The translations under genes and the position numbers were made by a program. A stretch of 21,625 nucleotides of DNA from a virus (taxonomy: Duplodnaviria; Heunggongvirae; Uroviricota; Caudoviricetes), in IMG/VR virus record IMGVR_UViG_2645727608_000013; one strand, written 5' to 3'. Every line of letters begins with the position of its first letter. Within the stretch, counting starts at the first letter, position 1. Below are positions 1,644-18,357 of the stretch, one piece after another. The notes under the pieces are model-generated. The model was not told the origin of the DNA. It saw only the letters and a list, made by a program, of their open reading frames with translations, and searched no databases.

Positions 1644-1657
1644 TTTTCGTCACCTCC

Positions 1658-4105
1658 TTAACCGTCATGCATCATGCTGGCACGGGCACGCGCACGTTTA
1701 TCCCGCTCGTATTTTTCGAGCGCATCCTGTAACTGGCGGTCAAGCTGTGTCCCCGGCGCAGTACCACCCGTCAGGCTGATGTGATATTCGTTTTTACTCT
1801 GGTCCACATAAGAGCGGCCAGCCGGTGCCGAGACTGGCTGATAAGCCTGATAGCCTGCATAAGAGCTGGTCGCCGGAATATAACCACCGGTGCCATACGT
1901 GGCGGCATGAGTTCTGGCGGCGGTCTGGTCAAGTGTGTCTGACTCTTTGTTGATGACCCCGAGTTTTTCCAGTACCCAGTCAATACCGCTGCGCAGTTTG
2001 TTGAACGCATTAAGCGGCAGCATCAGCGCGTCAGCCAGTGCCTGCCCGAACATGACGCCCGTATCACGGCAACGGTTCAGGGTGTCCTGGGTGGCTTTGA
2101 CCGGGGCAATCAGGTTTTTAAACCACTGCCACGCGGCCTGTAACTTTTCGCCCAGCCAGTCAAACACCGGCTTAAGTGGCGTGAACAGTTCCCCCACCGG
2201 CGCAAATGCCGCTTTCAGCCCTTCAACCACACCGCCAAAGAATGCGCTGACAGGCTCCCAGTATTTACGGATAAGCAACGCCCCGGCGACAATGGCGGTC
2301 ACCACGGCCACAACCGGCCAGCTAATCGCCCCGATGGCCGTCATAACAGCACTACCAACCGTCGTGAAGATTGCCCCCATTGCGCCTGCTACCGCGATAA
2401 TGGCATTGATGCCGGTGATAACCGGCCAGGCTACAAGACCAATGGCACCGATGATGCCAGTAAGCGCCAGCGCGCCACCGACAATGAGGCCGATGGTTGA
2501 CGCCAGTGATTTGTTTTTCTGGATCCAGCCGTCGAGTTTTAACACATACTTTGTGGCCGTCTGCGTGAGCTTACGCAGTGCGCCTTCCTGCTGGTCAAAC
2601 AGGTCAGTCCCCACCGCCTCATAAGCGGACTGAAACTCCTTAAAGTCACCGCCGAGGTTGTCCTGCATGATATTTACCAGTTCTGCGGTCTTTCCGTCTG
2701 AGGCTTTAAACGCAGCGGTCAGTTTGTCCAGCTTTCCGGTTGACGCGGCAGTCATCAGCACAGCGGCGGCTGAGCTGGCCTCCTCCCCGAAAATGGTTTT
2801 CATGTATTCGGCCTGCTGGGCAGTACCGAGCCGTTTTTTCTCAAAACTGGCCTGCATTTCTTTCAGAATGGTAAATACTGGTCGGATGTTTCCCTTGCTG
2901 TCTGAGGTTTTCACACCAAGCTCTTTCAGTGCATCCCACGCTTTTCCCGTCGGTGCCTGCAGGCGACTTAACACGGCACGGCTTCCCGTCCCCGCCATTG
3001 AGCCTGTGATTTTTGCATCATGCAGCGCCCCGACCATTGCGGCGGTTTCTTCAATGCTGACACCGGCATTTTTTGCCACAGGTGCGGCATAGGTCAGCGC
3101 ATCGCTCATGCCGTCAAAATCGGCGGCGGTTTTGTTCATCGTCATGGAGAGAACATCCCCGATATGAGCGACCTTATCGTTTGAAAGCTGAAAGGCGGAT
3201 TTCATCCCCATCAGCAGGGCGGCGTTTTCTTCCATCGTGCGGCGGTTCGCCAGCGCCATATTCAGCGTGACCGGCGTTGCCGCCTGAATGGCATCAACAT
3301 CTCCACCCGCTTTCGCAATGATAATCTGCGCACCGGCCGCATCATCCGCTGAGGCGGCGGTATTGTCACCGAGCTGGCGCGCCTGCTTGCGTAGTGCAGC
3401 CATTTCGGCGGAGTCTTTTGCCACACCGAGCACAGCCTGCAATTCTGAGTTTTTCTGCGCAAACTCATAACCGGGCATCAGCAGCTTAACTCCGGCCATC
3501 GTTCCCGCAGCAGCAATCCCCACACCGGCAGCGCCCACTGAGGCCATATTTCCTGCCAGTTCTTTTCCGGCCTGATAACGCTGTTTGACTGCGTTAAGTT
3601 TTGCCTGTTGTGCACTGACACGCGCCAGTGCGTCGCGCTGACGGTTAAGCTGTGCGGTGGTTTCACTGATACGGTTTTTCAGCCCCTGCTCATCATGTGC
3701 AAGATTGCGGGTATTAATTCCCACAGCGGCCAGTTCCCGCTGCTGGCGTTTAACGGAATCCGTCAGGCGGTTATATTTCGCCTGTAAGTCTTCCGCCGCT
3801 CGCTTTGCTGATTCCAGCACTTTCGCCTGAGCACGGGTCGGACGTTCGGTGTTTTTAAACTGTGTGGCAAGGGCTTCGGCTTCCTGCCGTGCCTTTTCAA
3901 GTGCATGACCAGTCACGGCGAGCTGTGCACTGGTCTTGCGAAATCCCTCAATACGGGATGCGTGACCGTTCAGCTCGCGCAGTGATTTTTGTGTTTCCCG
4001 GATATCCCCCGACAGCGACTTACTCGCTGTACGGATGGATTTAAACGGGCGGGATGCCTGGTCAACAGCCCTGAGCAATACCTGTAATTTTACATTGTTA
4101 CTCAT
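1658..4105 (-). CDS. T: Tail tape measure protein (P2 gpT-like)
   Basis: 815-aa ORF, same length as P2 gpT; Ala/Gly-rich hydrophobic central segment and coiled-coil-like N-terminal third typical of tape measure proteins; immediately downstream of E/E'. Confidence 0.9.
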   Translation of the reverse strand: MSNNVKLQVLLRAVDQASRPFKSIRTASKSLSGDIRETQKSLRELNGHASRIEGFRKTSAQLAVTGHALEKARQEAEALATQFKNTERPTRAQAKVLESAKRAAEDLQAKYNRLTDSVKRQQRELAAVGINTRNLAHDEQGLKNRISETTAQLNRQRDALARVSAQQAKLNAVKQRYQAGKELAGNMASVGAAGVGIAAAGTMAGVKLLMPGYEFAQKNSELQAVLGVAKDSAEMAALRKQARQLGDNTAASADDAAGAQIIIAKAGGDVDAIQAATPVTLNMALANRRTMEENAALLMGMKSAFQLSNDKVAHIGDVLSMTMNKTAADFDGMSDALTYAAPVAKNAGVSIEETAAMVGALHDAKITGSMAGTGSRAVLSRLQAPTGKAWDALKELGVKTSDSKGNIRPVFTILKEMQASFEKKRLGTAQQAEYMKTIFGEEASSAAAVLMTAASTGKLDKLTAAFKASDGKTAELVNIMQDNLGGDFKEFQSAYEAVGTDLFDQQEGALRKLTQTATKYVLKLDGWIQKNKSLASTIGLIVGGALALTGIIGAIGLVAWPVITGINAIIAVAGAMGAIFTTVGSAVMTAIGAISWPVVAVVTAIVAGALLIRKYWEPVSAFFGGVVEGLKAAFAPVGELFTPLKPVFDWLGEKLQAAWQWFKNLIAPVKATQDTLNRCRDTGVMFGQALADALMLPLNAFNKLRSGIDWVLEKLGVINKESDTLDQTAARTHAATYGTGGYIPATSSYAGYQAYQPVSAPAGRSYVDQSKNEYHISLTGGTAPGTQLDRQLQDALEKYERDKRARARASMMHDG

Positions 4106-4525
4106 TCGTGTTTCCGCTTCGCCGGAGCGCCTTTTCGCGCCATGTGATGAGTTCGGTCAGGCTCATGGGATACAGTTCTGATGGCGGCCAGTGAAATATC
4201 ACTGCCACATCCGCCATCAGGTCATCGACCGACAGATTTTTCGGAAACGTCACTGCACCGAGTTCGGCGACAAAAAACCGACCACCTTACCGGCCAGCGC
4301 CACAAGGTCAGGCAGTTCCAGTGCGGCGACTTCCTGCTCGGTCAGCATCGGTGCCGTCATGCGCGGCAGCACCTTAATCAGTGCATCGACTTCGGAGTTC
4401 GCGACCGCAGCCAGACTGACACCGCGCAGCGTCCCGGCACTGGGTTTCATCAGCGTGACTTGTTCGATAACCTGCTCACCACGTTTGACCGGATTGTCCA
4501 GGGTAATCACATTTTCTTTGTTCAT
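4098..4525 (-). CDS. E+E': Tail assembly chaperone E+E' made by programmed -1 ribosomal frameshift at 4271..4277
   Basis: Hand translation of the -1 frame after the TTT TTG codons gives a 57-aa extension (VAELGAVTFPKNLSVDDLMADVAVIFHWPPSELYPMSLTELITWREKALRRSGNTNE) ending at TAA 4098..4100, total 142 aa, the length of P2 E+E'; the extension overlaps the T start codon. Confidence 0.8.
4250..4525 (-). CDS. E: Tail assembly chaperone E (P2 gpE-like), zero-frame product
   Basis: 91-aa ORF ending ...GFLSPNSVQ; the slippery heptamer lies at codons 84-85; position between FII and T. Confidence 0.9.
   Translation of the reverse strand: MNKENVITLDNPVKRGEQVIEQVTLMKPSAGTLRGVSLAAVANSEVDALIKVLPRMTAPMLTEQEVAALELPDLVALAGKVVGFLSPNSVQ
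4271..4277 (-). other. Slippery heptamer T_TTT_TTG for the E to E+E' -1 frameshift
   Basis: Plus strand reads caaaaaa at 4271..4277; on the minus strand in the E frame this is GG[T TTT TTG], an X_XXY_YYZ slippery site. Confidence 0.8.
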
Positions 4526-4581
4526 GGTTTTCTCACTTATGAATCGGGGTTAACCGGTCAGCCAGGCTGACCGGATGAAAA

Positions 4582-5100
4582 TCACAGGCCGATATTGCGG
4601 CGGTGTTGCTCCAGCCGGTCGACGCCGTTCACCTTCTCAATCATGTTGATGGTGTCGATTTCGACCAGCTCCTTACCGTCCATCGTCAGCCGGAAATAGG
4701 TGCAGACCACGGAGATTTTCGACTCGGTGTCTTCTCCCTGTTTACCCTCGCCGGTGTCGATTTCTTTCTGACGTCCACGCATGACCACCTCGACGGCCAC
4801 CGTTTCGCCGGTATCGTCACGCTGGTAAGAGCCTGCAAAACGAATCGGCACAGCATCCACACCGGTTGCGGCGTAAAGCTCCCAGATAACCGAATCCGGG
4901 AAGCCCCCGAGCGACCACTCCATTGACAGCGCATCGTCATCAAGGCCGAGGTCTACCGGTGCGCTGCCGTTCATTCCCGCACCGCGATAGTTTTCGAGCT
5001 TACGGGTCAGTTTTGGCAGCGTGACGGACTTTGCAACGCCCTGATAGCTGTAGCCGTTCAGAAAGACGTTCATTAACTTGAGTTTGCGCGGCATTGCCAT
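4582..5100 (-). CDS. FII: Tail tube protein (P2 gpFII-like)
   Basis: 172-aa ORF matching P2 FII in size and sequence; directly downstream of FI. Confidence 0.9.
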   Translation of the reverse strand: MAMPRKLKLMNVFLNGYSYQGVAKSVTLPKLTRKLENYRGAGMNGSAPVDLGLDDDALSMEWSLGGFPDSVIWELYAATGVDAVPIRFAGSYQRDDTGETVAVEVVMRGRQKEIDTGEGKQGEDTESKISVVCTYFRLTMDGKELVEIDTINMIEKVNGVDRLEQHRRNIGL

Positions 5101-5112
5101 CGGTCAAGCTCC

Positions 5113-6303
5113 TTAATTGCTGTTAACCGAAGTGACCAGATTTGCCAGGTATTTATCGGTAATACGCTGGCGCAGGGTCAGGTTTTCGAGAGGAGGCACC
5201 GGTGTATAGTCGTAGTCGATATACAGTTTTCCGGCCTTGAGGGTTTCCGCATCATTGGATTCTTCGCTGAACCAGCAGGTCGCATCCACGATATAGCCGT
5301 TTGTTTTCAGCTCACGGAATTTGGCATTGATGCCGTCAACGATGTCGCGAATCAGCGTTGCAGTGATGGGCTTGTCCACCGCCCACATGTGCGCCTCAGC
5401 CATCGTGTCGGCCAGCACCTGCGCGGTGCGGGTGTAGTTTTCAAAGAGGAACAGCGGGTCATCAGAGCAGGTACGGTTACCCCAGAAGCGGAAACCGTCA
5501 CGGCGAATCAGCGTTGTGACACCTGACTCGTTCAACAGGTCAGCATCGGTGCCGGACTCCTGCAAATCCCAGAAAACAGAGGCACTGATGCCGGTAACAC
5601 CGTTTACCCCGACGTTGGACAGCGTTTTATGCCAGCCCTGCTCCTGGTCGATTTTAGCGCGCAGGCCCAGCGCACGGGCGGTGGCATACGCGGTGGCGGT
5701 GGTACTGGCGACCGTATCCCATGCGAGGAAATCCGGCCAGATGACCATCAGCTCACGCTGGCTGAAATTCTGGCGGTAGGCTTTCACCTCGGAAATGGTC
5801 TTACAGCCCCATGCGCTGATATACCCGAAAGCGCGCAGCTTCTGACAGACTGATGCCAGTGCAACAGCCACCTCTTTGGTGTCCAGTCCCGGCACGCCGA
5901 GAATACGCGGTTTAACACCGGTTACTGACTCCGCCGCCAGCAGGGCTTTCAGTCCGGTGTACTGACCGTTTTCGTCGGTGGTGCCGATGATATTGGAAAC
6001 GGTCTGCGCGAGTTTCGTTTCTTCGTCTTCGCCGGTGCCGTCTTCCACACGTACGACAACGGTGACCGGTTTTGACTGGTCAGCGATGGCCTGTAACGAC
6101 GCCGCCAGCGTGCCTTTTTTACCGGCCTTTGCAATTGCGCTCTGCACATTGGTAATCAGCACCGGTTTATTGAGGGGGAAGATTTCCGCATCCGCATCGC
6201 TGGCCGTGCAGACCATGCCAACAATGGCGGTGGATACGGTGGAAATGACGCGGGTGCCGTCGTTAATCTCCTGCACCTGCACGCCGTGATGATAGTCACT
6301 CAT
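5113..6303 (-). CDS. FI: Contractile tail sheath protein (P2 gpFI-like)
   Basis: 396-aa ORF matching P2 FI; GGAG Shine-Dalgarno 8 nt upstream of the ATG (minus strand, 6312..6315). Confidence 0.9.
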   Translation of the reverse strand: MSDYHHGVQVQEINDGTRVISTVSTAIVGMVCTASDADAEIFPLNKPVLITNVQSAIAKAGKKGTLAASLQAIADQSKPVTVVVRVEDGTGEDEETKLAQTVSNIIGTTDENGQYTGLKALLAAESVTGVKPRILGVPGLDTKEVAVALASVCQKLRAFGYISAWGCKTISEVKAYRQNFSQRELMVIWPDFLAWDTVASTTATAYATARALGLRAKIDQEQGWHKTLSNVGVNGVTGISASVFWDLQESGTDADLLNESGVTTLIRRDGFRFWGNRTCSDDPLFLFENYTRTAQVLADTMAEAHMWAVDKPITATLIRDIVDGINAKFRELKTNGYIVDATCWFSEESNDAETLKAGKLYIDYDYTPVPPLENLTLRQRITDKYLANLVTSVNSN

Positions 6304-6375
6304 CCGTTTAACTCCGTGGTTAATGGGTGCAACTATTTTCTGTTGGGCAGTGCATAAGACGCTATTTGACCTGAC

Positions 6376-6393
6376 TGGTCAGTGGATGAAACA
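6376..6393 (-). promoter_or_regulatory. Candidate Ogr-type late-promoter activator site upstream of FI (TGT-N12-CCA, one mismatch to the TGT-N12-ACA dyad)
   Basis: Minus strand reads TGT-N12-CCA at 6393..6376, centred about 82 nt upstream of the FI ATG, which is about -55 if the transcript starts ~25-30 nt upstream of the ATG; P2 late promoters carry a TGT-N12-ACA element near -55 (recalled, not verified). Confidence 0.3.
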
Positions 6394-6394
6394 A

Positions 6395-6427
6395 CAGATT
6401 AAAGAAAAGGCGGGCAACTCGCCCGCC
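6395..6427 (-). terminator. Rho-independent terminator on the minus strand (GGCGGGC-GAGUU-GCCCGCC followed by UUUUCUUU)
   Basis: Perfect 7-bp GC stem at 6409..6415 / 6421..6427 with a 5-nt loop; on the minus strand it is followed by a T-rich run (plus strand 6395..6408 = cagattaaagaaaa). It sits between the AT-rich cargo segment and the FI promoter region. Confidence 0.55.
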
Positions 6428-6621
6428 CGTCCTGATTTGTACTCACTCATTTTTCAACTGACAATTTACATAGCCCAAACGCTATCAAATCTGACAGCCT
6501 ATTTTGAGCGAAAAGCAGACATTAGCATCCTTCTTATAGAAAAGGTAAACCTGCTTCTATTTGTTAATCAATAGAGAGTAAGTCACAATGGCAGATACGA
6601 ATATCGGCTGGAGAAATTAAA

Positions 6622-7704
6622 TTGAAACCAGAGCAAATGAAAAACAGGGAAGAATTAACTAGCTTTGCAACGAAACTTGCTACTCAAATCAAGATGCAAA
6701 CCAGCAGCAATTTAAATGATCTTTCTACAGCCCAAGAGAGCTCGCTATTGCCTCTAATCAATCATGCCTGGGGAGAGCAGTTTGAGGATATGAATAGGAT
6801 ATCCCAAAACTACCCTGGTCTCGACTATGTGCAACCGGGAAAGCGCTTAGGTTTGCAAATGACTGCCACTGCAAGAAAGGTTAAGTATCAGAAAACATTA
6901 GACAAACTTCGAAATAATGAGAAGTTAAAGGGTAAGTTTGACGAGATTTGGTTTTTCGTCCTCACGGCTGAACGCCTACCTGATAACGTACGTGAACACC
7001 CTGACGATTTTCAGTGCAAATATTTCACATTGTACGACCTAGTCGAAAAGGTAATGGGACAGACTTTAGAATTTCAGCGTGATTTTTTGACCCTTGCCCG
7101 GAAAGAATACTCGGATTATTTCTCTCCTGGGGACGTTGCTTTCAATCAGGGGTATTGTGTATCAGAAAACAAGCCGATCCCCTTTGACTTGAGTCTTTTC
7201 AACGCGTTAATTCATACTAATGAATGGTTTGATGATGTTGACGAAGGTGAGCAGATCGTATATGAATTTCTAGAACTTTTTAAAAATAGACTGCGTCAAT
7301 GCACTTTATCTGCTAGAAATCTTTTAAGCAAAATTATCAGTGAGATAAATATACCGAAGAGTACAAGCACGAAAATCGAGTTTCCTGAAAAGCAACTTTT
7401 CGGGCCACTAATGATTGACGATACAAACTATCAATCTTTTTCAAAAGACCTTGATGATTTGTTCGAGATGAGTCTTATTGAACGATGGGACAATTATGTT
7501 GGAATGTACTATAAGGGTGATGATGCATATATCAAAAATGAACGTATGATCAGCGTGTCATTTCCAAAGATTGAACCCGAAATGAATCTGTATGCGGCGT
7601 TATATATCTTTTATGAAAAAAATCATGATATTGCAAAACTTGTGAACGCAATTGAAAATAGTGATTTTTCTCTGCTCGCTGACAGCACTTGCCAAAATAA
7701 TTAG
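6622..7704 (+). CDS. Uncharacterised 360-aa protein occupying the P2 Z/fun hotspot; candidate anti-phage defence or exclusion gene
   Basis: Only long ORF in the ~1.65 kb between FI and G; opposite strand to the flanking late genes; visibly AT-rich against a GC-rich backbone; probable TTG start at 6622 with GGAG 8 nt upstream (first ATG at 6637); acidic, no obvious transmembrane segment, no Walker A, no clear catalytic motif. Confidence 0.75.
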   Translation: MKPEQMKNREELTSFATKLATQIKMQTSSNLNDLSTAQESSLLPLINHAWGEQFEDMNRISQNYPGLDYVQPGKRLGLQMTATARKVKYQKTLDKLRNNEKLKGKFDEIWFFVLTAERLPDNVREHPDDFQCKYFTLYDLVEKVMGQTLEFQRDFLTLARKEYSDYFSPGDVAFNQGYCVSENKPIPFDLSLFNALIHTNEWFDDVDEGEQIVYEFLELFKNRLRQCTLSARNLLSKIISEINIPKSTSTKIEFPEKQLFGPLMIDDTNYQSFSKDLDDLFEMSLIERWDNYVGMYYKGDDAYIKNERMISVSFPKIEPEMNLYAALYIFYEKNHDIAKLVNAIENSDFSLLADSTCQNN

Positions 7705-7880
7705 TTAGTAAAAGGATGCATTTATGCTCTTAGTTACTCACTCTGTTGAATTTATTTTAAGTTATTAATATAGATATGGGCTTATATATCTTTAATAGAA
7801 ATGACTAGCGTGAAAAATATGGGGCTAACTGGTCTGCCTCTCTTTTGACCAAGACAATTTGCTGGAAAACTTCCGCTCTT

Positions 7881-7920
7881 GGCACAGAGCGGACTGTCAG
7901 ATTAGACTTTACTCTGTGCC
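7881..7920. other. Imperfect hairpin (9-bp stem GGCACAGAG / CTCTGTGCC, ~22-nt loop) between the cargo ORF and G; weak candidate terminator
   Basis: Inverted repeat at 7881..7889 and 7912..7920; no strong T-run on either side, so terminator function is uncertain. Confidence 0.25.
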
Positions 7921-7955
7921 ATAGATATGTAAGCTCCCACCAGAGCTCATACAAC

Positions 7956-8483
7956 TTACTGCGGCATTTCCGGCCATTCAGGATTTGCAGGATCCACACG
8001 GCTGACCAGAACACTGTAGCGTTCCCATGCCTCCAGTCGACTGCGCTCCTCATCTGTTGCCATATTCAGCCTGACAGCGCGCTCCAGCGGCAAAATCACG
8101 GATTCAGCTTCGGAAAGTAAAGTTGCCTTTTGTGATTCTGCCAGTTGCTGCTGTTCGTCTGCCGTATAAATCCGCTTAATCACGGCACCATCCTTAAACA
8201 TCCATTTACCTGAGTCATCAGCACGTCGGTTTGCGGTAATATCAGGAACCTCAACAACGCTAAAACCTTCAGGGTTAAGCGTTGAAGCATCTCTGGTGAT
8301 GCCGACAATTATATTATTCTCGTCGTAAACAATCTTTATCGTGTCTTCCTGAAAATTACTTACTTCCTCATACCATTTTTTTCCGTCTTCAGACCATAAC
8401 CAGATAACATCAAAATTTTTTGTCAGTTGATATTGGGCAACAGTTTTGGGATTACCCGCAGTAATATTTTTTAAATGCTGCAT
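7956..8483 (-). CDS. G: Tail fibre assembly chaperone (P2 gpG-like)
   Basis: 175-aa ORF, same length as P2 gpG; immediately downstream of H. Confidence 0.85.
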
Positions 8484-8486
8484 AAA

Positions 8487-10577
8487 TTACACCTGTGCGA
8501 CGTTATACCATGTGCCATTAATGTATTTTTGTATTGGTCTGAATACTGCCGGATCATCGCCATCAACTTCGCCGACAATGCCAAGCCCTGTAATTACATG
8601 GCCTGATTTCTCATACATCACGCCTTTTTGCATGGTCTGAACAACACGCGTACCCAGGCGAACATCTTTCACATAGCGGGAATCAAAATTTCCGTAATCT
8701 GATGGGTTAACACGTCCAGTAACACTCAGACCATGCCCCATTGACACTCCGCCATTAGCGTTATTGATAGTCAGCGGCCTTAAACCGTTCCATGACCCAA
8801 ATTTATCGCCAGAGGCCGTCAGCATTAAATATGTGCTGCCACCATCATTCCTGATAAAGAATCCATAATTGCCATAAGCAATGCGCAGACCATTAGCACT
8901 GAGTGATGTAATTTCACCTCTAGAACGAAGACCATAAGCGGAGCTGAGTGATAATTCTTCCTGAGCGTCATAGTTTCCTGTCGCCCAGCGAATTACCCCG
9001 CCCTGTACTGTTTCATGCCAGATAGTGTCTCCTTCTCCACCACGAAACTTTCTGAGATATTTTTTGCCGCCTCTGGTGCCTGAACATAAGGCCGTAGACA
9101 TATAGGCATTCTGGCTTCCGCCATCCTGATTAATCGTTCCGGTCATTGCGTCGCCCTGACGATTCCAGTCACGACGCCAGCCGGGGGAGTAGCCGTCCCC
9201 ATGATTAATGTAAGTGAATTGCGCGCTGGTTGTACCGCCACCACTTGATGTTGTCGGCGTGGTCACTCGGATAGTGATTGCAGATTTAGTTCCCATGACC
9301 TCGACGACACAACCAGCCAGGTGGATATCACCACATCCGGTATCCGTAATGATTTTGTTATTTGCATATGACCAGGAGCCTTTGCACATCCAGTACGGAT
9401 GATTAAATGCACCACGGGAATCCAGCCATTCAATAAACTGAGCGGTTGTCCAGTTTCCGGCTTCAGTGCTCAAAGCGCCGCTAAAAGCACGACAGGCACC
9501 GATATTTTTCGTGAAGGTATCCTTTCCCGGAATATCCGCACCGTTCTGATCTTTCTGAAGACGTTTTTCAGCATTGTCATAGGCAGACTTCACCGCTTTT
9601 GGTGTTGCAGCCAGCGTTTCAGAATCGCTGTTGGTGGCGCTACTGAGCTGGACAAGACCTTTTCGCGCTGTGGTGGCATCCTGTGCAGTGTATTTCCCGT
9701 TAGCAAGGTCATACACTGTCTTAACCGCCTTTGGCGTTGCCGCAAGCGTTTCAGAATCGCTGTTGGTGACGCTACTGAGCTGGACAAGGCATTTTCGCGC
9801 TGTGGTGGCGTCCTGTGCAGTGTATTTCCCGTTAGCAAGGTCATATGCTGCCTTAACCGCTTTTGGTGTTGCGGCGAGCATTTCAGACGTGCTGTTGGTG
9901 GCACTACTGAGCTGGACAAGCCCTTTTCGCGCTGTGGTGGCGTCCTGTGCGGTATATTTCCCGTTAGCAAGGTCATAGGCGGCCTTTACCGCTTTCGGCG
10001 TTGCGGCCAGTGTTTCAGACGTGCTGTTGGTCGCGCTGCTTAACTGAGTAAAACCTTTTGCGGTCAGCGAGGCGTCCGGGTGACGTCGTGACTGTTCGTG
10101 CTCTGCAATTTTGTCATCAACATAATCCTGCGTTGCCATCACCGTTGTGGTGTCAATGGTCAGCTCCACTGAGGCCACACTGCTGACGATGATGACCATA
10201 CGGCAGGTCTGCGAACGCCCTGAGCCTTCGGCAAGAGCTGGCTTATAACTTTCGGCCATGTTCGCCACGGCAATTAACGTTCCCGCATCATCGTACAGGC
10301 CAAGCTCACGCATCCAGAAACCGCCCACCTCCGGCGGAATAACCAGCTCTGCGATAATATAATTACTGTTTCGTTTGTCCTGGCTGATTTTGTTCAGCGC
10401 ATGTCGCCAGACTTCATGGATAAGCCCGGTCTGTCCGGCATCCGGGACAGGCAATTTACCCCCGCCATCCCCGACGGCCATCGTGGTAATGTTGACCTTC
10501 CGCCCTCCCGGTGCGGTTGCCGCTGCCAGCTTTGCTGCACCGGCAGTGGTGATAACGGTTCTGAATTTTGTGCTCAT
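8487..10577 (-). CDS. H: Tail fibre protein (P2 gpH-like N-terminus, divergent C-terminal receptor-binding region, four internal tandem repeats)
   Basis: 696-aa ORF; N-terminal ~170 aa matches P2 gpH as I remember it (MSTKFRTVITTAGAAKLAAATAPGG...); C-terminal half differs from my memory of P2 H (669 aa). Confidence 0.85.
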   Translation of the reverse strand: MSTKFRTVITTAGAAKLAAATAPGGRKVNITTMAVGDGGGKLPVPDAGQTGLIHEVWRHALNKISQDKRNSNYIIAELVIPPEVGGFWMRELGLYDDAGTLIAVANMAESYKPALAEGSGRSQTCRMVIIVSSVASVELTIDTTTVMATQDYVDDKIAEHEQSRRHPDASLTAKGFTQLSSATNSTSETLAATPKAVKAAYDLANGKYTAQDATTARKGLVQLSSATNSTSEMLAATPKAVKAAYDLANGKYTAQDATTARKCLVQLSSVTNSDSETLAATPKAVKTVYDLANGKYTAQDATTARKGLVQLSSATNSDSETLAATPKAVKSAYDNAEKRLQKDQNGADIPGKDTFTKNIGACRAFSGALSTEAGNWTTAQFIEWLDSRGAFNHPYWMCKGSWSYANNKIITDTGCGDIHLAGCVVEVMGTKSAITIRVTTPTTSSGGGTTSAQFTYINHGDGYSPGWRRDWNRQGDAMTGTINQDGGSQNAYMSTALCSGTRGGKKYLRKFRGGEGDTIWHETVQGGVIRWATGNYDAQEELSLSSAYGLRSRGEITSLSANGLRIAYGNYGFFIRNDGGSTYLMLTASGDKFGSWNGLRPLTINNANGGVSMGHGLSVTGRVNPSDYGNFDSRYVKDVRLGTRVVQTMQKGVMYEKSGHVITGLGIVGEVDGDDPAVFRPIQKYINGTWYNVAQV
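9578..10060. repeat. Four tandem ~120-bp (40-aa) in-frame repeats inside tail fibre gene H
   Basis: Near-identical units visible in the nucleotide sequence, encoding repeats of ...QLSSATNS(T/D)SE(T/M)LAATPKAVKAAYDLANGKYTAQDATTARK...; the six-frame track shows repeated peptides in both strands over 9590..9978. Confidence 0.85.
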
Positions 10578-10587
10578 TATTCCTCAC

Positions 10588-11118
10588 TTATCCGGGGTAA
10601 ACCGTAATTACATCGCCGTCGTAAGCCACACCACCGGCGAACAGGTAGCCGGGAATGTCCCGGGTAATGTTCAGGCCAATAAGGTGACGGCTTGCAGGTT
10701 TGGCATCAGCAATCAGCCGTTCCATTTCCTGATACATTGCCTCTGTGATGCCGCTTTCCAGTACACCAATATCAAGCCGGAAGGTGCCGGGCGGGTCACT
10801 GTTTTCCCACCACTCCGTCACGTTGATGAGATAGCCGAGCGGCTCCACCACACGCCGGATTGCACCTATAGTGCCCTTATGACAGTGGATGAAATAGGCA
10901 TCGCGGATAACGGCGCGTTTTGTCGCTTCCGGCCACTTTTCATCCCACCTGTCGACCGAAAACGCCCACGCCAGCCACGGCAGCAGATTTGCCGGACAGG
11001 TGTCCGGGTTCCACAGCTCACGAATACTGACCGGTGTTTTTTCAATTTCCGCACAGGCTTTTGCGGCGGCGACCTCAAGCGGTGATGAGCCGGTCGGCAG
11101 CAGTCGCGAATCACTCAT
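10588..11118 (-). CDS. I: Baseplate protein I (P2 gpI-like)
   Basis: 176-aa ORF matching P2 gpI in length; between J and H. Confidence 0.85.
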   Translation of the reverse strand: MSDSRLLPTGSSPLEVAAAKACAEIEKTPVSIRELWNPDTCPANLLPWLAWAFSVDRWDEKWPEATKRAVIRDAYFIHCHKGTIGAIRRVVEPLGYLINVTEWWENSDPPGTFRLDIGVLESGITEAMYQEMERLIADAKPASRHLIGLNITRDIPGYLFAGGVAYDGDVITVYPG

Positions 11119-12019
11119 CCGAGCCTCCGGTCACGACGCGGTATTCGGTACAGAAAGACGCCTGCGTACTGTTGAGCACGATGTCGGCCAGTGGTGCAGC
11201 CAGTTCGACACGCTGCACACCTTCCACATGCAAAGCGGCATAAATGGCAGACAGACGGATGTCGCGCCCCAGCCGGTGCTGTGCCGTGATATATGCTTCC
11301 AGTTTTTTCACGGCGGCCGCGCGGATGGGTTCGCTTTCGGGACCAGGGTAAAGGTAAAGCGTGGCGTTTATCTGGTATTCAACAATGGCGGCAGACTGCA
11401 CGGTCACGCGGTCGGCCACCGGTCTGACGTCCTCGCCATTAAGGGCGTTACGCACCACGGCCAGCAGGTCTTCGGATGCGACGCCGTTATTTTCACGTGA
11501 CAGCACAGAGATGGTGACGCAGGCCGGAGACGGACTGGTGACAGAGATATCCGCGACGCGCCCGTCGGCACTGCGACCATGATACTGATAGGCACCCACC
11601 GACCCGGCGACGCTTAAACCCTCAAACGCCTGCTGAATACGCAGACGATAATCGGTGTCAGACTCCATCACTGCCGGTGTCGGCGGGATGGTCGAATCAT
11701 CTGCCGGGGTGATAATCAGGCGCGTGGTGTTGTAATTGGCACCAATCACATCAAGGTCATTACCGGCGGCACAGGCCAGCATTACCGCCCGTGCGGCCTC
11801 ATTCACACGCTGACGCCAGATAAGCTCACGATAAGCATTTTCCTCCAGCAGTTTGAGGAGAGGCTCGGATTCCAGCGTCAGGGTACGGGCAACCGCCTCC
11901 TGCTGGTCTTCCGGGTAAAGGGAAATCAGTGTCGCCTTGCGTTCGGCAAGAATGGTTTCAAAGTCCAGCTCCTCGACCACATCCGGTGCGGGTAGCTGGT
12001 TCAGGTCGATAATCGGCAT
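11111..12019 (-). CDS. J: Baseplate assembly protein J (P2 gpJ-like)
   Basis: 302-aa ORF matching P2 gpJ in length; overlaps the I start by 8 nt. Confidence 0.85.
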   Translation of the reverse strand: MPIIDLNQLPAPDVVEELDFETILAERKATLISLYPEDQQEAVARTLTLESEPLLKLLEENAYRELIWRQRVNEAARAVMLACAAGNDLDVIGANYNTTRLIITPADDSTIPPTPAVMESDTDYRLRIQQAFEGLSVAGSVGAYQYHGRSADGRVADISVTSPSPACVTISVLSRENNGVASEDLLAVVRNALNGEDVRPVADRVTVQSAAIVEYQINATLYLYPGPESEPIRAAAVKKLEAYITAQHRLGRDIRLSAIYAALHVEGVQRVELAAPLADIVLNSTQASFCTEYRVVTGGSDE

Positions 12020-12023
12020 GGTT

Positions 12024-12371
12024 TCAACTCACAGGGATGGTTAACGAAAGTGGCTGGCCAGTGTCGTTGTGCTGGCCGGTTAACGTGACCGTCATTCGCC
12101 CGTCAAAACTGCGCTCAGTGGTGACGGATGACAGGGTGACGCGGGGTTCCCATTTCAGCACTGCCATGTAACAGGCGACCTTAATCTGCAACTCAAGCGC
12201 CGGAGTCTGCGGCTGGTCAATCATTGACGCCAGCAACGAGCCGTAATCACGACGCATCACCCGTGAGCCGACCGGTGTGCACAGGATATCGCCGATACTC
12301 TGGCTGATATGTTCAAGGTCAGTGACAGTCAGGCCATCACTGCGATTCATTCCGAGATAACGCGCTGTCAT
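12024..12371 (-). CDS. W: Baseplate protein W (P2 gpW-like, T4 gp25-like)
   Basis: 115-aa ORF matching P2 gpW in length; overlaps the V stop by 4 nt. Confidence 0.85.
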   Translation of the reverse strand: MTARYLGMNRSDGLTVTDLEHISQSIGDILCTPVGSRVMRRDYGSLLASMIDQPQTPALELQIKVACYMAVLKWEPRVTLSSVTTERSFDGRMTVTLTGQHNDTGQPLSLTIPVS

Positions 12372-13003
12372 AGAGGACTCCCGGTTGTGCCGCCGCTGTC
12401 GCCGGGGTGTTTATGGGTATGCAGTACCTTACCGTTTGATGAGAGTTCACCGCCGGTGTGTTCAATGTTGCCGCGCATCGTCCCGCCCTTCTGCACTTCC
12501 AGCGTGCCGGTAGTCAGCTTGTTAGTGCAGACCACTTCCGGTGTGTCCAGGGTGACGCGGGTTGATGCTTTCACCGTGACCACCGGCACCGTGGCAGTAA
12601 CAGAATCAGAAGCCGTCACGCTGGCCGTTTTAATTCCGCTTACCGTGAGTACACTGGTTTCAGGTTCATACTCAATCACCGCCCCGTCAGGGAAACGGAT
12701 ATGCAGGGCATCCGCCGACGCAGACGGTGCGGGGTTATCGCCGGAATAAATCCCCGGCAGAACGAACGCCGTGTCGAGTTCACCGCCCACGGCCAGAATC
12801 AGCACCTGTTCCCCCACGGAAGGTGCCCACCATGTGCGCGAACGTCCGGCGCGATGAGTCAGCCACTGAAGCCAGTCGGTGCACATGCCGCCGGTCTGCA
12901 CACGGCAGCGACCGGCATTAAGGTCGGTTTCGACGACAAGGCCGGTGCGGATCATGTTGCGCAGTGCGCGCGCGATTTCCTGAATATTTGCGAGAGTGTT
13001 CAT
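12368..13003 (-). CDS. V: Baseplate spike protein V (P2 gpV-like)
   Basis: 211-aa ORF matching P2 gpV in length; first gene of the V-W-J-I-H-G block. Confidence 0.85.
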   Translation of the reverse strand: MNTLANIQEIARALRNMIRTGLVVETDLNAGRCRVQTGGMCTDWLQWLTHRAGRSRTWWAPSVGEQVLILAVGGELDTAFVLPGIYSGDNPAPSASADALHIRFPDGAVIEYEPETSVLTVSGIKTASVTASDSVTATVPVVTVKASTRVTLDTPEVVCTNKLTTGTLEVQKGGTMRGNIEHTGGELSSNGKVLHTHKHPGDSGGTTGSPL

Positions 13004-13069
13004 AACGGGAAGGATGCCGCCGGGTCATACCGGCGGCAATGTGACGATGAGGTGTCGGGAATGGCACAA

Positions 13070-13522
13070 CTAACGGTCGAGGTGAGCCAGGATAATCTCT
13101 TCAATCATCTGCACATCCTCACCGGTAAAGCCGAGCAGAGGACGCGCCGGATAATCAATTTTCTTACCGTCTTTCCGGGTTTCTTCCGACAGACCGAACT
13201 GATGCACACTGGCTATTTTCGGTGACTTCCCGCCGTAAAACTCCATTGATGCCTGTTCAGGGCTGGCGCGGATATGCAAAAAACGACTGGTGATAAGTTT
13301 CGCAAACATTTTTCGTTTAACGCGACCGGTCTTTTTTCTGGCGCTCTGCTGCTGGCGTGGTGCGTAGGGTGTGCCGTCCGGGGCTTTCTGTGCCATCACC
13401 CGGCGCTGCTGACTCTGCCACAGACGTTTCGCCAGTTCGGTACTCAGTCGCCGACGCCCTGACGGTGACAGCGATTCAATCAGTCCGGTCAGCCGGTCTT
13501 CAAAACGCTTAAACTCATTCAT
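13070..13522 (-). CDS. S: Tail completion protein S (P2 gpS-like)
   Basis: 150-aa ORF matching P2 gpS in length; downstream of R. Confidence 0.85.
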   Translation of the reverse strand: MNEFKRFEDRLTGLIESLSPSGRRRLSTELAKRLWQSQQRRVMAQKAPDGTPYAPRQQQSARKKTGRVKRKMFAKLITSRFLHIRASPEQASMEFYGGKSPKIASVHQFGLSEETRKDGKKIDYPARPLLGFTGEDVQMIEEIILAHLDR

Positions 13523-13982
13523 CCCACTCGCTCACCAGTTCGCCATTGATATAAAGCTCCACCGGGCGGGTGACCGGCTCCGGCGGCGGGGGTTCCGGGA
13601 TATTCTTCACATGCAGCGCACCGTCAACCTCGCTGACCAGCGTGCGCTCGGTCAGCATCAGACTGATGCTGATATCAAAGCTGCTGTCATTGTTGATGTC
13701 TGCATAAAACGTGAAGCCCTTTTTCTGACCTTCGTCAGTGGTCATGATGTCGGGCTGATTTTCCCGCAGCCACGCCAGCACCGGCACGATGAGCAGGTCA
13801 AAATCACCGGTAAAGTCGGTCACAATCACATTGAGCGTGTAACGCTTTTCGAACGACAGCGACGTCGCCAGCGTGGAGGCAATACTCCCGTTATCCACGA
13901 ATATCCGAAGCATCTCTGGACTGGTTTTCAGCACCGTGACGGCATCAGTCAGCGCCCTGCGCAGGCTGTCGGGTTTGAGCAT
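13515..13982 (-). CDS. R: Tail completion protein R (P2 gpR-like)
   Basis: 155-aa ORF matching P2 gpR in length. Confidence 0.85.
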   Translation of the reverse strand: MLKPDSLRRALTDAVTVLKTSPEMLRIFVDNGSIASTLATSLSFEKRYTLNVIVTDFTGDFDLLIVPVLAWLRENQPDIMTTDEGQKKGFTFYADINNDSSFDISISLMLTERTLVSEVDGALHVKNIPEPPPPEPVTRPVELYINGELVSEWDE

Positions 13983-14235
13983 CGTTTTCGTCCTGACAGT
14001 GTTTAATCATTTTTACCTGGCTGGCACAGCGCGCCAGCGCGTTCTCAAGCTGCCGGATATCGGCACTTAAATCACCGTTCGTCTCCGGGTCGCTGCCCGG
14101 CATCGGGCAAAGACTCACTTTCGGGCAGGCGTTGTGGACAATCACTGGCGTCGGTGCAGGCGGGGCGCTGGTGCAACCGGCGCACAGCATCAGGCAGGTC
14201 AGCGCCGTACCAGCGGCGAAAATCTTCGTTTTCAT
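13945..14235 (-). CDS. lysC: Outer-membrane lipoprotein spanin LysC (Rz1-like), in the +1 frame, starting inside lysB
   Basis: Internal ATG at 14233..14235 begins MKTKIFAAGTALTCLMLCAGC..., a lipoprotein signal with lipobox cysteine, giving 96 aa, the length of P2 LysC; the 135-aa track ORF is an upstream in-frame extension. Confidence 0.75.
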   Translation of the reverse strand: MKTKIFAAGTALTCLMLCAGCTSAPPAPTPVIVHNACPKVSLCPMPGSDPETNGDLSADIRQLENALARCASQVKMIKHCQDENDAQTRQPAQGAD

Positions 14236-14515
14236 TAAGTAACCTCGTGATGGTTTTCTCGCGCTGTGCTTCACGCTTCGCGGCTTTCTCCAGTTCCTGA
14301 CGCAGAGCCACCTGCGCCAGCTCGTTTTTGTCTGCCCTGGTGAGCGCAACATGAAGCTGATTTTTCAGCATGGTGATGGTCGTCTGCTGTTCACTGGCGA
14401 CACTGTTCGCCCTGTCCAGCGAGGCGCGCAGGCTGGCATTTTTATGTTTCACCAGAAACAGACCGGCCACCGCCAGTGATAACAACACAACCAGCACAGT
14501 CATCAGCCTTGACAT
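14072..14515 (-). CDS. lysB: Inner-membrane spanin LysB (Rz-like)
   Basis: 147-aa ORF with an N-terminal transmembrane segment (MSRLMTVLVVLLSLAVAGLFLV) and a charged coiled-coil-like region; sits between lysA and R as in P2. Confidence 0.8.
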   Translation of the reverse strand: MSRLMTVLVVLLSLAVAGLFLVKHKNASLRASLDRANSVASEQQTTITMLKNQLHVALTRADKNELAQVALRQELEKAAKREAQREKTITRLLNENEDFRRWYGADLPDAVRRLHQRPACTDASDCPQRLPESESLPDAGQRPGDER

Positions 14516-14928
14516 GGTTCCCGCCCCTCAAAACGCTGACAGCAGGCCGTACGTATCAGCCGGAAGAACACCGATGCCACAAGATAAATCAGCGCGGTAA
14601 AAATCCACCCGGCAGCGACCAGCGAGATAAACGTCGCCACCACCACTACCAGAGCCACTGCCCGTCTGCGCCACGGCACCGGCTGCAAAAACAGCGACGT
14701 GACAATCTTCATGGCCAGCGATTCCGGCGGCAGCTCCCGCCCGTAGCGTTCCAGTACATACTCCGTGGCATACACGCCGACACCACCGGCAACCACACAG
14801 ATAACCGTCGCCAGAATCGCCCAGGCGGCGACAAAACTGACGGCCACGCTCTGCGGGTAAATCAGGGACAGTGCCAGCATCATCGCCAGCGACACGTTCA
14901 GCATCAGTGAAAGGGATAATTTCTTCAT
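14503..14928 (-). CDS. lysA: Lysis timing membrane protein LysA (P2 lysA-like)
   Basis: 141-aa ORF with multiple hydrophobic segments, same length as P2 LysA; downstream of endolysin K. Confidence 0.8.
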   Translation of the reverse strand: MKKLSLSLMLNVSLAMMLALSLIYPQSVAVSFVAAWAILATVICVVAGGVGVYATEYVLERYGRELPPESLAMKIVTSLFLQPVPWRRRAVALVVVVATFISLVAAGWIFTALIYLVASVFFRLIRTACCQRFEGREPCQG

Positions 14929-14942
14929 GGTGTTTACTCCGT

Positions 14943-15440
14943 TTAAGCCGGTACGCCGCCGGCGGTACGCCAGACGGTGACCAGTTTTTCCAGTGGATGC
15001 TCACGCTGACCGTAACCGGCTCCCGGCAGGGACGCCCAGATATTGCGACAGCGTGAAATGGCGCGCTCAATGCGTCCCTCCCGGATGTCATCCAGTGCAC
15101 CGCGTTCGCGGATCAACTGAATGGCAAGTCTGTCCTGTGACAACGGACTGAAATCCGGCAGGGCAAGCTGTTTGCGGTAGTGCGGCCAGAACAGGTAAAG
15201 CTGCTGATAGCGACCGGAAGCCGTGGATTTTTCACCGCGACGGTTAAACACCTTCGCCGGTCGGCCATGCGCGAACGGGTGGTCACTGTAGTCGGTGAAT
15301 ATTTCCGGCTTTCCGTCCAGTCCGGTGACTATCACGTCATAGCCCCGGTTTTTCGTCAGCGGGTGATTCGCCGTCCCTTCGGACACGGCCAGCATGTCGA
15401 GAAAGGCGGCGATATTCTGATGCGTGTTAATTACCGGCAT
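14943..15440 (-). CDS. K: Endolysin (P2 gpK-like lysozyme)
   Basis: 165-aa ORF matching P2 gpK in length; start overlaps the Y stop by 1 nt. Confidence 0.85.
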   Translation of the reverse strand: MPVINTHQNIAAFLDMLAVSEGTANHPLTKNRGYDVIVTGLDGKPEIFTDYSDHPFAHGRPAKVFNRRGEKSTASGRYQQLYLFWPHYRKQLALPDFSPLSQDRLAIQLIRERGALDDIREGRIERAISRCRNIWASLPGAGYGQREHPLEKLVTVWRTAGGVPA

Positions 15441-15721
15441 TACGGTTTCCCCCTGCCCTTAAAGCGGCGCTGAATGGCAATCTCAATCACCTGATAACCG
15501 GCGATACCCAGCATGGAGCCGATGCCGCACACCGCAGGCAGTGACAGGTCAGGAAACTGCACCAGAACAACACCGGCAACCATCGAGACAAAACCACCGA
15601 GCAACATGCGCCCGATAAACAGACGCGGGGTGATGGGTTCACCACCGGCAAGCACCTTGCCGACAACAATCAGCACCCCAATCATGAAAAGCGACAGGAC
15701 GCTTTTTTCTTCTGCTGTCAT
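15440..15721 (-). CDS. Y: Holin (P2 gpY-like)
   Basis: 93-aa ORF with hydrophobic segments and a basic C-terminus (RRFKGRGKP), same length as P2 gpY. Confidence 0.85.
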   Translation of the reverse strand: MTAEEKSVLSLFMIGVLIVVGKVLAGGEPITPRLFIGRMLLGGFVSMVAGVVLVQFPDLSLPAVCGIGSMLGIAGYQVIEIAIQRRFKGRGKP

Positions 15722-15724
15722 GCG

Positions 15725-15928
15725 TTACTCCCACAGATTGACAGTTTCAGCCACGGGCGCGGTCTGAACGTCGGGCAGTTCGACGGCGGTGCCGTGTGGC
15801 AGCACCGCACCCAGTTCAGCCAGTCCCGGATTTGCGGCGAGCACGGTCTCAACCACGCCCTCAGTGCGCCCGTAATACCGGACACAAATGGCGTCGAGCG
15901 TGTCGCCCTGTAGCGCAAAGGTCTTCAT
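15725..15928 (-). CDS. X: Tail protein X (P2 gpX-like, LysM-like)
   Basis: Internal ATG at 15926..15928 gives a 67-aa product MKTFALQGDTLDAICVRYYGRTEG..., the size of P2 gpX; this ATG overlaps the L stop (ATGA). The 90-aa track ORF is an upstream extension. Confidence 0.8.
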   Translation of the reverse strand: MKTFALQGDTLDAICVRYYGRTEGVVETVLAANPGLAELGAVLPHGTAVELPDVQTAPVAETVNLWE

Positions 15929-16437
15929 CAGATTTGACTCACGATGCAGCGCGGCTTGTCCTGGATGCGCGCCACTGCCCAGCGCATATCCCGCCACAGC
16001 TCATCAATGGTGCTGTCAATGCTGTCGGCCTTCTTGTCGCCTTTCGCACTGGCATCCACGCCGCGGTAACGCTCATAAAGCGACGCGGTCGCCATCGCAC
16101 ACACGGCGCGCTCGTAGTAAAAAACTTTGATGCTTTCACCGTCGATGTCGTCCGCCGGGACGTCCGCCAGACGCGTAAAACCGGCGGCAATTTTCTGTTC
16201 GCGGTACTCGTACAGCTCCGCATTTGTTTCCGCCATGCCTGACTTGATGGCCTCACGCAGACGGGCGGGGGCGACGGTCTGCTCAAGGCGCATACGTTCC
16301 CGGACGCGCTTCGGGTCGATATCGGGAAAAAAGAACGTGTTTTTAATCACCGGCTCGTCGCCTGCCGGTTGCGGGATGACCACCGTACCCTCACCGGACA
16401 CGGGAGCCTCCTTTCGCGGAATAATCAGCGTCATCAT
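15928..16437 (-). CDS. L: Head completion protein L (P2 gpL-like)
   Basis: Start at the ATGATG at 16432..16437 gives 169 aa (MMTLIIPRKEAPVSGEG...), the size of P2 gpL, with GAGG 8 nt upstream; the 189-aa track ORF is an upstream extension. Confidence 0.8.
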   Translation of the reverse strand: MMTLIIPRKEAPVSGEGTVVIPQPAGDEPVIKNTFFFPDIDPKRVRERMRLEQTVAPARLREAIKSGMAETNAELYEYREQKIAAGFTRLADVPADDIDGESIKVFYYERAVCAMATASLYERYRGVDASAKGDKKADSIDSTIDELWRDMRWAVARIQDKPRCIVSQI

Positions 16438-16536
16438 GACTACCTCTGAAAAGTCGGGCGGTGGACGCCGGTGCAGTGTCAGGTGATTCACCCTCACTGA
16501 CCGGCGTGCCGCCCTGGCGCGGGGCGCATTCGGTTG

Positions 16537-17280
16537 TTAACTGGCTTTCTTTTTCGGGCGTCCACGTTTTGCCGGTGTCACGCTCCGTGTCTTACGCGGG
16601 GCGCGGGTGACCGCTTTGGGCTGCGGCTCCGGCTTCGGTTTCAGCTCCCGCTCCAGTCGTTCAATCTCTTTTTTGACGCCTGCCTGACAGTCGAGCTGTG
16701 TCGCACGTTGCAGGTGCGCCAGCGCACCGGCGGCATCACCAGCGTCACGCAGAAACAGACCGGTGATTTTGTGCAGCTTTGCGCGCACTTCATCAGGCAT
16801 GTCAGCCGTGGCGGTCAGTTCGAGGGTCTCCGTCAGCAGGCGGGTATCCACAGACTCACCGGCAGCGTGAGCACGCATGGCCGCGAGCGCCACCTCCTCG
16901 GTGAACATGTACGGCGGGGTGCGGCGGTGTTTACCCGGCATGGTCAGACCGTACTTCAGGGCGTAACGGGCAATCTCCAGCGCACCGGCAATATCGCCGG
17001 TATCCAGACGCCACAGCATGACCGTCATCAGAATGTCATCCTGTGCGCCTTTGCCCTGCTCCAGCACGCCGTTCACCCACGGCAACCAGAACGGCAGCAG
17101 TTCGCGCTTTTTCGCGGCCTTCAGCTCTTTTGAATAAATCGTTTTCAGTGTGCGCTGGTCTGCGGCGAGCTTAACCAGCATCTGCTCATAGACAGTTGCA
17201 TGTCGCAGCGGGGCGGCTTCCCGCTGCGCGGTCATCGCTGCCGAGACCCGCATCATGTGGCGCTGTGCGGGACTCGTCAT
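16537..17280 (-). CDS. M: Terminase small (endonuclease) subunit M (P2 gpM-like)
   Basis: 247-aa ORF matching P2 gpM in length, with a basic C-terminal tail; downstream of N. Confidence 0.85.
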   Translation of the reverse strand: MTSPAQRHMMRVSAAMTAQREAAPLRHATVYEQMLVKLAADQRTLKTIYSKELKAAKKRELLPFWLPWVNGVLEQGKGAQDDILMTVMLWRLDTGDIAGALEIARYALKYGLTMPGKHRRTPPYMFTEEVALAAMRAHAAGESVDTRLLTETLELTATADMPDEVRAKLHKITGLFLRDAGDAAGALAHLQRATQLDCQAGVKKEIERLERELKPKPEPQPKAVTRAPRKTRSVTPAKRGRPKKKAS

Positions 17281-17283
17281 CGG

Positions 17284-18357
17284 TTACGCTCCCGGCTCTG
17301 CGGTCGCTTTAGCCGGTGTGGAGAAGTCACCGACCTTGATTTTTTCCACCAGACAACCGGCGGCGTAGTCTTCCACCACGTAATCAATGTTCATTGACTC
17401 GTAGTTCTCCACGCGGTCGAGTTTCGGGTTTTCCACAATCACGCGGCGATGGCTGTCATCCATGTAGTAGATGGACAGGTTTTTCAGCTTCGTGATGAGC
17501 ATCGCATCCGCCGGGAAGTACGGGACGCGTACCGCCGGCAGGTTACCGATGCGTTTCTGGCTGATGATGACGTCAGCGGCCAGCATTTCGCTGTTGTCCT
17601 GCTCCTTGTTGACGATGGGGAAATACTTGTCCGCCAGTAGCTGACGCCCCACAATCACCACAAGGTCAGGGTCTTCCTGATACCACGGTTCAATCAGGTT
17701 GTTGGTCGCATCCATCACCAGTGCATCGAGGCTGGCATAATCACCGCCCTTGCCCACGCGGATAACCTCAGAGGTGGTGCGGCCTTCCTCGTCAGTGACC
17801 TTGCTCATCACGCGCGCCGGGGCTTCATTGCGGTATTTCTGCAGCCAGCCGACCGCCACATCCTGCAGCATCGGATTGCTGCTGCGGTCAGAGGTTTCGG
17901 CACGCTTCACGCCGTTAAAACCGGCCATGATGAAATCAAGGGACTGGCGTTTGATAATGGCGTTACGGACACGGAGCTGGAAATCCTGATAACGCGCCCA
18001 CAGGTCCAGCGTTTTGTAGCGGATATAAAAATCGAAGTTAATCTGGTCGCATTCGTACTTGTTAGACGCCAGCTTCGAGAAGTCCTTCGGCTGACGCTCG
18101 GTGCCACCGGCGGTGTCGGTGGTGCTGGCGATGGAGCCGGTGACACCGATGCCAATTTTTTCCCCTTTCATTTCGCTGACCGGCACAATATTGATGCGGG
18201 TCAGAAAGTCAGAGGACTCCTGCATGGTGTTCATCAGGGTCTGGGTGACCGACGGTTCAACGGTGAATTTTTTCGACACATCACCGGCGTCGATGCCGTT
18301 CAGTTCGGCAACACGGGACAGGTAGGCATTAAATTTAAAGCGGGTTTCCTGGCGCAT
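17284..18357 (-). CDS. N: Major capsid protein N (P2 gpN-like)
   Basis: 357-aa ORF matching P2 gpN in length; between O and M. Confidence 0.9.
   Translation of the reverse strand: MRQETRFKFNAYLSRVAELNGIDAGDVSKKFTVEPSVTQTLMNTMQESSDFLTRINIVPVSEMKGEKIGIGVTGSIASTTDTAGGTERQPKDFSKLASNKYECDQINFDFYIRYKTLDLWARYQDFQLRVRNAIIKRQSLDFIMAGFNGVKRAETSDRSSNPMLQDVAVGWLQKYRNEAPARVMSKVTDEEGRTTSEVIRVGKGGDYASLDALVMDATNNLIEPWYQEDPDLVVIVGRQLLADKYFPIVNKEQDNSEMLAADVIISQKRIGNLPAVRVPYFPADAMLITKLKNLSIYYMDDSHRRVIVENPKLDRVENYESMNIDYVVEDYAAGCLVEKIKVGDFSTPAKATAEPGA

Follow-up and report, generated by a model that had tools for sequence, protein, structure and literature searches.

A putative mosaic tail fibre gene H in a P2-like Escherichia coli prophage, with four Phage_fiber_2 units and a P2-family tip

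GpH, the tail fibre protein of the plague-diagnostic P2-like Yersinia phage L-413C (NC_004745), was shown to bind cells of Yersinia pestis (PMC7460101). The architecture described for it in that paper, which cites Garcia et al. 2008, is a foreign mosaic middle flanked by N- and C-termini like those of P2. Exchange between phages P88 and pro147 of a 31-aa segment named HR2 (P88 residues 716-746) alters host range (PMC5285337). The Phage_fiber_2 repeat, originally observed in lambda Stf, is treated as 'Pf2' in PMC3368898. For the Mu-type Tfa chaperones, the summary given in PMC9608196 is that a variable N-terminal domain binds the fibre and a conserved C-terminal domain drives trimerisation. Here we describe a fibre gene in a 21,625-nt stretch of viral DNA (IMGVR_UViG_2645727608_000013; the window). 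It shares the mosaic logic of L-413C GpH, with P2-like ends and a foreign middle; L-413C GpH itself is 913 aa long, with one repeat unit and a different middle.

The window corresponds to the late region of a P2-like prophage, in the orientation opposite to that of the P2 reference genome (AF063097), and a blastn search of the window found three blocks of P2 at 96-97% nt identity (Table 1). The fibre gene is a single intact open reading frame in a late operon with the gene order of P2, V-W-J-I-H-G; it starts 10 nt past gene I, a spacing like that of P2, and the Tfa chaperone gene G follows directly. Genes V, W, J and I have 97% nt identity to P2. The protein has the PF12571 attachment domain and a P2-family tip, and matches PHROG tail-fibre families. 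Taking together the gene order, the nt identity to P2, the Pfam domains, the PHROG families and the comparisons with P2 H and G, we assign the gene, with a probability of about 0.92, to gene H of a P2-like (Peduovirus) E. coli prophage, predicted to encode a modular, mosaic, trimeric fibre with its chaperone encoded next to it. Indeed, as far as can be judged from the sequence, the window holds nothing contrary to a P2-type mosaic fibre. The protein is identical to a database entry (NCBI 'tail fiber protein [Escherichia coli]', P0007) and is present on 10-11 contigs; matches covering at least 80% of the gene occur in 167 of 5426 complete E. coli genomes. The allele is thus already catalogued, and by its homologies it is an ordinary mosaic of P2, Mu, T4 and L-413C modules. 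The module boundaries, homologies, unit-by-unit orthology, copy-number polymorphism and identity to database proteins reported below were computed in this analysis. Elsewhere in the late region, nothing occupies the slot of P2 orf30 between S and V, where only about 65 bp (13003-13068) lie between two P2-homologous blocks.

Table 1. Gene H, its modules and neighbouring features, in window coordinates.
Feature	Coordinates	Strand	Basis or remark
Gene H, tail fibre, 696 aa	8487-10577	-	ORF list and translation; Pfam PF12571, four PF03406, PF21446
Predicted N-terminal baseplate-attachment domain, aa 1-151, P2 backbone	10125-10577	-	PF12571 (Phage_tail_fib), E = 1.4e-58; 96% aa identity to P2 H
Phage_fiber_2 unit 1, aa 169-212, common to P2	9942-10073	-	4 nt differences from P2 unit 1
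Phage_fiber_2 unit 2, aa 213-256	9810-9941	-	P2-backbone breakpoint within, near 9852
Phage_fiber_2 unit 3, aa 257-300	9678-9809	-	Absent from three-copy relatives, multiplied in five- and six-copy relatives
Phage_fiber_2 unit 4, aa 301-344	9546-9677	-	C-terminal half enters Mu Sc-like 'DNAxxRLxKDxNGADIP' junction
Mu S' (G(-) fibre)-like segment, aa 345-487	9117-9545	-	phmmer against PDB 8ju3 residues 177-332, 236.6 bits
Connector, aa 488-548	8934-9116	-	Resembles T-even-like phage long-tail-fibre proteins only
Mu S / T4 gp34-type trimerisation domain, aa 549-620	8718-8933	-	PF21446 (Gp34_trimer)
P2-family fibre tip, aa 621-696, with stop codon	8487-8717	-	75/76 identical to L-413C GpH
HR2 equivalent, aa 648-678	8544-8636	-	Alignment with P88 and pro147
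Gene G, tail-fibre assembly chaperone, 175 aa	7956-8483	-	PF02413 (Caudo_TAP), E = 9e-35
P2-like block, genes D to FI	1-6519		blastn against P2
P2-like block, H 5' part to V	9852-13003		blastn against P2
P2-like block, genes S to O	13068-19237		blastn against P2
IS21-family ORF, IstB	19323-20072	-	Pfam, 2e-67
IS21-family ORF, IstA-like transposase	20084-21625	-	rve and Mu-transposase C domains

Tandem Repeats Finder reported an in-frame array at 9576-10037 with a period of 132 nt, 3.5 copies and 87% matches, and a second repeat search gave the same 132-nt spacing over 9570-10059. In register, the array consists of four units of 132 nt, or 44 aa, covering aa 169-344 (window 10073-9546). The PF03406 (Phage_fiber_2) model, which describes a repeat of ~42 residues, matches it in four tandem stretches that cover the model over its full length (E = 7.6e-78; 256 bits, against a curated threshold of 22 bits). 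Any two of the units show 16-48 differences in 132 nt, equivalent to 64-88% identity in DNA, and are 61-86% identical in protein. The initial annotation was therefore right to see four tandem, in-frame repeats; the period of 120 bp (40 aa) and the near-identity that it gave them do not hold. Nor are the repeats unusual in number and conservation, as it had suggested. In the closest 120 protein clusters (formed at 90% identity), four units are present in 105, five in 12, six in two and three in one, so that four is the modal number for this allele family. A profile of the four units, searched against 1.84 billion representative proteins, matched 4668 clusters, among which are side-tail-fibre proteins with 11-12 nearly identical units whose sequence is almost that of the gene H units. 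Side tail fibres have a PF03406 unit of nearly the same sequence, and nothing sets the units of gene H apart from the repeat family; the number of units in other fibres ranges from 1 to 12 or more, and the phages compared here have one (L-413C), two (P2 and pro147), three (P37 and P88) or four (vB_YpM_46). Codon 263 of H (9789-9791), in unit 3, carries a private Gly-to-Cys change ('ARKCLVQL'), where the nearest database alleles (P0010-P0012) and all the other units have Gly.

It had been proposed that the array arose by recent slipped or unequal recombination in this genome, and further that the whole C-terminal half was swapped in with a co-adapted chaperone, giving a new receptor specificity. 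We consider this combined history very improbable. Relatives do differ in copy number, in patterns typical of unequal crossing-over, as the proposal would have it. However, the units are far from uniform, four is the commonest number, and each unit has its nearest counterpart in the unit of the same number in isolated phage vB_YpM_46 and in the complete genome of E. coli DETEC-S792: same-numbered units differ from those of the window at 3-10 nt, and units off the diagonal at 13 nt or more. Since the units are orthologous by number across vB_YpM_46 and DETEC-S792, the four-unit array predates the divergence of these elements. Judged by this orthology, the array is old and has not expanded recently in this genome. 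The remaining elements of the proposal concern the distal part of the fibre, and we return to them below.

The expectation that the repeat number, and hence fibre length, is variable was borne out when copies were counted in related prophages and phages as the initial annotation had advised: relatives carry one to six units, four being the commonest number, and their arrangements show unequal crossing-over patterns. In a five-unit relative the unit order is 1-2-3-2-4. In a six-unit relative it is 1-2-3-3-3-4, with three middle units that are identical in DNA. Three-unit alleles lack unit 3. Both the five-unit and the six-unit alleles come from draft assemblies and one three-unit allele (L007) from a metagenome contig at 6x coverage, such that these counts carry some assembly risk; three-unit alleles were found too in isolated phage P37 and in one complete genome. 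We propose that the number of shaft units in this allele family changes by unequal crossing-over between internal units. Whether unit number, from one to six on the same tip family, acts as a fast-evolving length adjuster that is adaptive for host range or adsorption rate rather than neutral is another matter: we think it unlikely. If it did, gain and loss of internal units 2 and 3 would tune the reach of the tip through O-antigen or capsule layers. The allele series, with one to six shaft units on the same tip, could offer a natural set for relating fibre length to adsorption. For the present, the repeat number is best treated as polymorphic in this fibre family, and over-reading of it is unwarranted. 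In the six-unit relative (GCA_049194365.1, 3001-8355; draft), a BCCT transporter gene lies directly after the locus in place of the tail sheath gene, which suggests that the locus belongs to a truncated prophage remnant.

Tandem repeats are liable to be miscounted, and we considered whether the four-copy array could be a collapse or expansion produced by assembly. The source assembly, like the four other assemblies identical to it, is a draft, and the copy numbers of relatives could themselves be unreliable, given the DNA-identical middle units of the six-copy allele and the thin coverage of the three-copy contig. Nonetheless, the evidence makes such an artefact extremely improbable. Over 20,577 nt the window matches, at 100% identity, contig JHSL01000009.1 of E. 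coli assembly GCA_001265935.1, and four other independent assemblies are 99.99-100% identical to the window with the array alike, so that the same array is found in five independent assemblies. In complete-genome records, the 2091-nt gene gives a single ungapped match at 95-98% identity, and vB_YpM_46, an isolated phage, carries the same four units. Moreover, all four units differ pairwise at 16 or more positions, which makes them placeable by ordinary reads.

The first part of gene H is closely similar to that of P2. Nucleotides 1-726 have 96.7% identity to P2, and aa 1-251, including repeat units 1 and 2, are 96% identical to P2 gpH (AF063097), which occupies the same operon position. In a protein comparison with P2 H, similarity is absent over aa ~252-616 and returns near the C-terminus, where aa 617-696 are 76% identical to residues 590-669 of P2 H. 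The view that the C-terminal half is non-P2 was consequently correct for the former stretch and incorrect for the latter. P2 H differs in having only two Phage_fiber_2 units and a middle (aa ~250-590) unrelated to that of gene H; it also retains, ahead of the tip, a 68-aa module missing from gene H, and its HR2 residues are different too. At the DNA level, with breakpoints mapped against nine relatives, the P2 backbone stops at window 9852, within unit 2, and resumes at 8708, at only 85% identity, continuing through G to 7872. The P2 backbone has a GC content of about 55% and distal H one of 36-48%, a drop that fits a foreign origin of the distal part. On these comparisons, aa ~243-620 of H are of non-P2 derivation and comprise the extra repeat units, the Mu S'-like segment, the T-even-like connector and the Mu S/T4 gp34-like domain. 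Gene H thus appears to have arisen by recombination among tail-fibre genes, an instance of long-known mosaicism, and the main value of the locus is for annotation, as a textbook case of it.

Alignment of the C-terminus with Mu and T4 fibres, which had been put forward as a check, succeeded for the middle of the protein, where Mu S', Mu S and gp34 all match, and gave a different answer for the last 76 aa, which are P2-family. The core of the Mu S'-like segment (aa 345-472) is 79% identical to Mu S' (PDB 8ju3), and a lambdoid side tail fibre matches the segment at 81% identity. By tblastn, T4-like fibre proteins match aa ~480-623 at 52-59% identity. The domain that follows scores 82 bits with PF21446 (Gp34_trimer; Pfam cut-off 27) over aa 541-604, and matches the solved structures of Mu S (chain 5yvq, E = 5e-60) and T4 gp34 (chain 4uxe, E = 7e-17); over aa 549-623, identity is 68% to Mu S residues 265-339 and 50% to T4 gp34. 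The tail fibre of Yersinia phage vB_YpM_46 (MT374857) and 764-aa E. coli prophage alleles have 98% aa identity over aa 1-626. In vB_YpM_46, an extra 68-aa P2-like module lies between the gp34-like domain and the tip; gene H lacks it, with the junction '...VTGRVNPSDYGNFDSRYV', and the same junction is present in pro147, in L-413C and in the record of Yersinia phage GMS190, an UNVERIFIED entry that is 98% identical across all of the distal 352 aa.

In Mu, the S and S' fibres belong to the G(+) and G(-) states, and gene H resembles both, with aa 334-487 matching Mu S' and aa 549-623 matching Mu S. This raises the question of a Mu/P1-type invertible switch, like the Mu G, P1 C and e14 P segments, in which a DNA invertase would choose between alternative C-termini; some P2-like phages, P88 for example, do have an invertase together with alternative genes for fibre and chaperone in inverted orientation. 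The gene content of the window reduces the probability of such a switch almost to nothing. A serine DNA invertase gene is absent between G and FI and across the window, G being followed by a SMEK-domain gene and then FI. There is one fibre gene and one Tfa gene, with no inverted second copy of either. A search of the whole window for gix, hix and cix crossover sites gave best matches with 6-9 mismatches. The fibre differs from those of Mu and T4 in having an attachment domain of P2 type, not Mu or T4 type, and the locus differs in lacking an invertible G segment, an invertase and a gix site. In phage P88 (NC_026014, 1794-5903), the DNA invertase adjoins a second fragment of a tail-fibre C-terminus, which is inverted, and a second gene for a chaperone, a switch of the Mu G type.

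What remains of the proposed history is the claim that the C-terminal half came from elsewhere together with a matching chaperone and changed the receptor. Two observations favour it: the non-P2 derivation of aa ~243-620, and a tip that is unlike that of P2 at the HR2 host-range positions. Against it, the tip and G are both of the P2 family. The last 76 aa are identical to L-413C GpH at 75 of 76 positions, and are 96% identical to pro147, 91% to vB_YpM_46, 79% to P2 and 72% to P88; the P2-family tip pattern, NFDSRYV...FRPIQKYINGTWYNVAQV, is present in H, and the tip was compared across seven phages. G has the same length as P2 G and is 91% identical to it, 95% to L-413C G and 98% to the vB_YpM_46 chaperone; across the chaperones of all P2-like phages compared, identity to G is 87-98%, in the N- and C-terminal halves alike. 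A P2-type G beside a P2-family tip is consistent with the roles of the Tfa domains as summarised in PMC9608196. We conclude from these comparisons that it was an internal block that was exchanged, and that the pairing of tip (with the HR2 region) and chaperone stayed P2-family. Within the HR2 equivalent, H has the pro147 residue at all 12 positions where P88 and pro147 differ, and it has the pro147 residue too at a 13th mapped position, which lies a little beyond HR2 at aa 689 (P88 residue 757). The receptor-binding tip would accordingly be of the L-413C/pro147 type and no new type, and the chaperone an ordinary P2 G. A different receptor specificity, as the initial annotation had it, is not a claim that can be made for a tip that matches so closely that of L-413C, whose GpH binds Yersinia pestis.

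With gene H read as a P2-type mosaic fibre gene, a plausible path from sequence to function would be as follows, where the formation of trimers, docking to the baseplate, binding of the LPS core and the part played by the chaperone follow what is established for the fibres of P2, Mu and T4. The P2-type N-terminal domain (aa 1-151) would dock a trimeric fibre on the P2 baseplate, as the fibres of P2, Mu and T4 suggest. The four 44-aa Phage_fiber_2 units would form the proximal shaft, and the Mu S'-like segment, the T-even-like connector and the gp34-type domain (aa 345-620) the distal shaft. The tip (aa 621-696), carrying the host-range residues, would fold and form trimers assisted by chaperone G and would then bind the receptor, which we take to be the LPS core by analogy to P2 and L-413C. 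By analogy with experiments on P2, L-413C and P88 (PMC9594776, PMC7460101, PMC5285337), the H protein is thus likely to be a trimeric fibre that mediates adsorption.

The array also contains open reading frames at 9399-10043 (+), 9631-9978 (+) and 9590-9976 (-); these had no family match above threshold, and we treated them as by-products of the repeats. An 82-aa open reading frame at 7805-8053 (-), which overlaps the 3' end of G, had no family in Pfam, PHROGs or PADLOC, and a promoter and terminator scan of 6300-8500 found none above shuffle expectation.

At the far end of the window (19238-21625), an IS21-family element abuts a 5'-truncated capsid-scaffold gene O. P2 homology ends at window 19237, which corresponds to P2 nt 3200, and O starts at P2 nt 3167; the homology therefore ends past the start of O, and the first ~11 codons of O and its promoter have been replaced. 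The prophage is probably defective, and because O is truncated next to the IS21-family element, this copy of H may never enter infectious particles. In two sister assemblies the contigs stop at the point where the IS21 element meets O.

Between G and FI, in the slot that P2 fills with Z/fun, lies a gene (6622-7704, +) for a 360-aa protein with a SMEK_N domain (Pfam, E = 1.6e-19). This slot is a hotspot for anti-phage genes in P2-like prophages (PMC9122126). The SMEK_N protein has a PADLOC match to the N-terminus of an Argonaute-associated REase model, and a full-length match to phrog_36490, a family without an assigned function; the GC content of the gene is low, at 31-42%. It is a candidate for single-gene defence or nuclease cargo. 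The same SMEK_N gene also adjoins the three-unit H allele in the metagenome contig L007.
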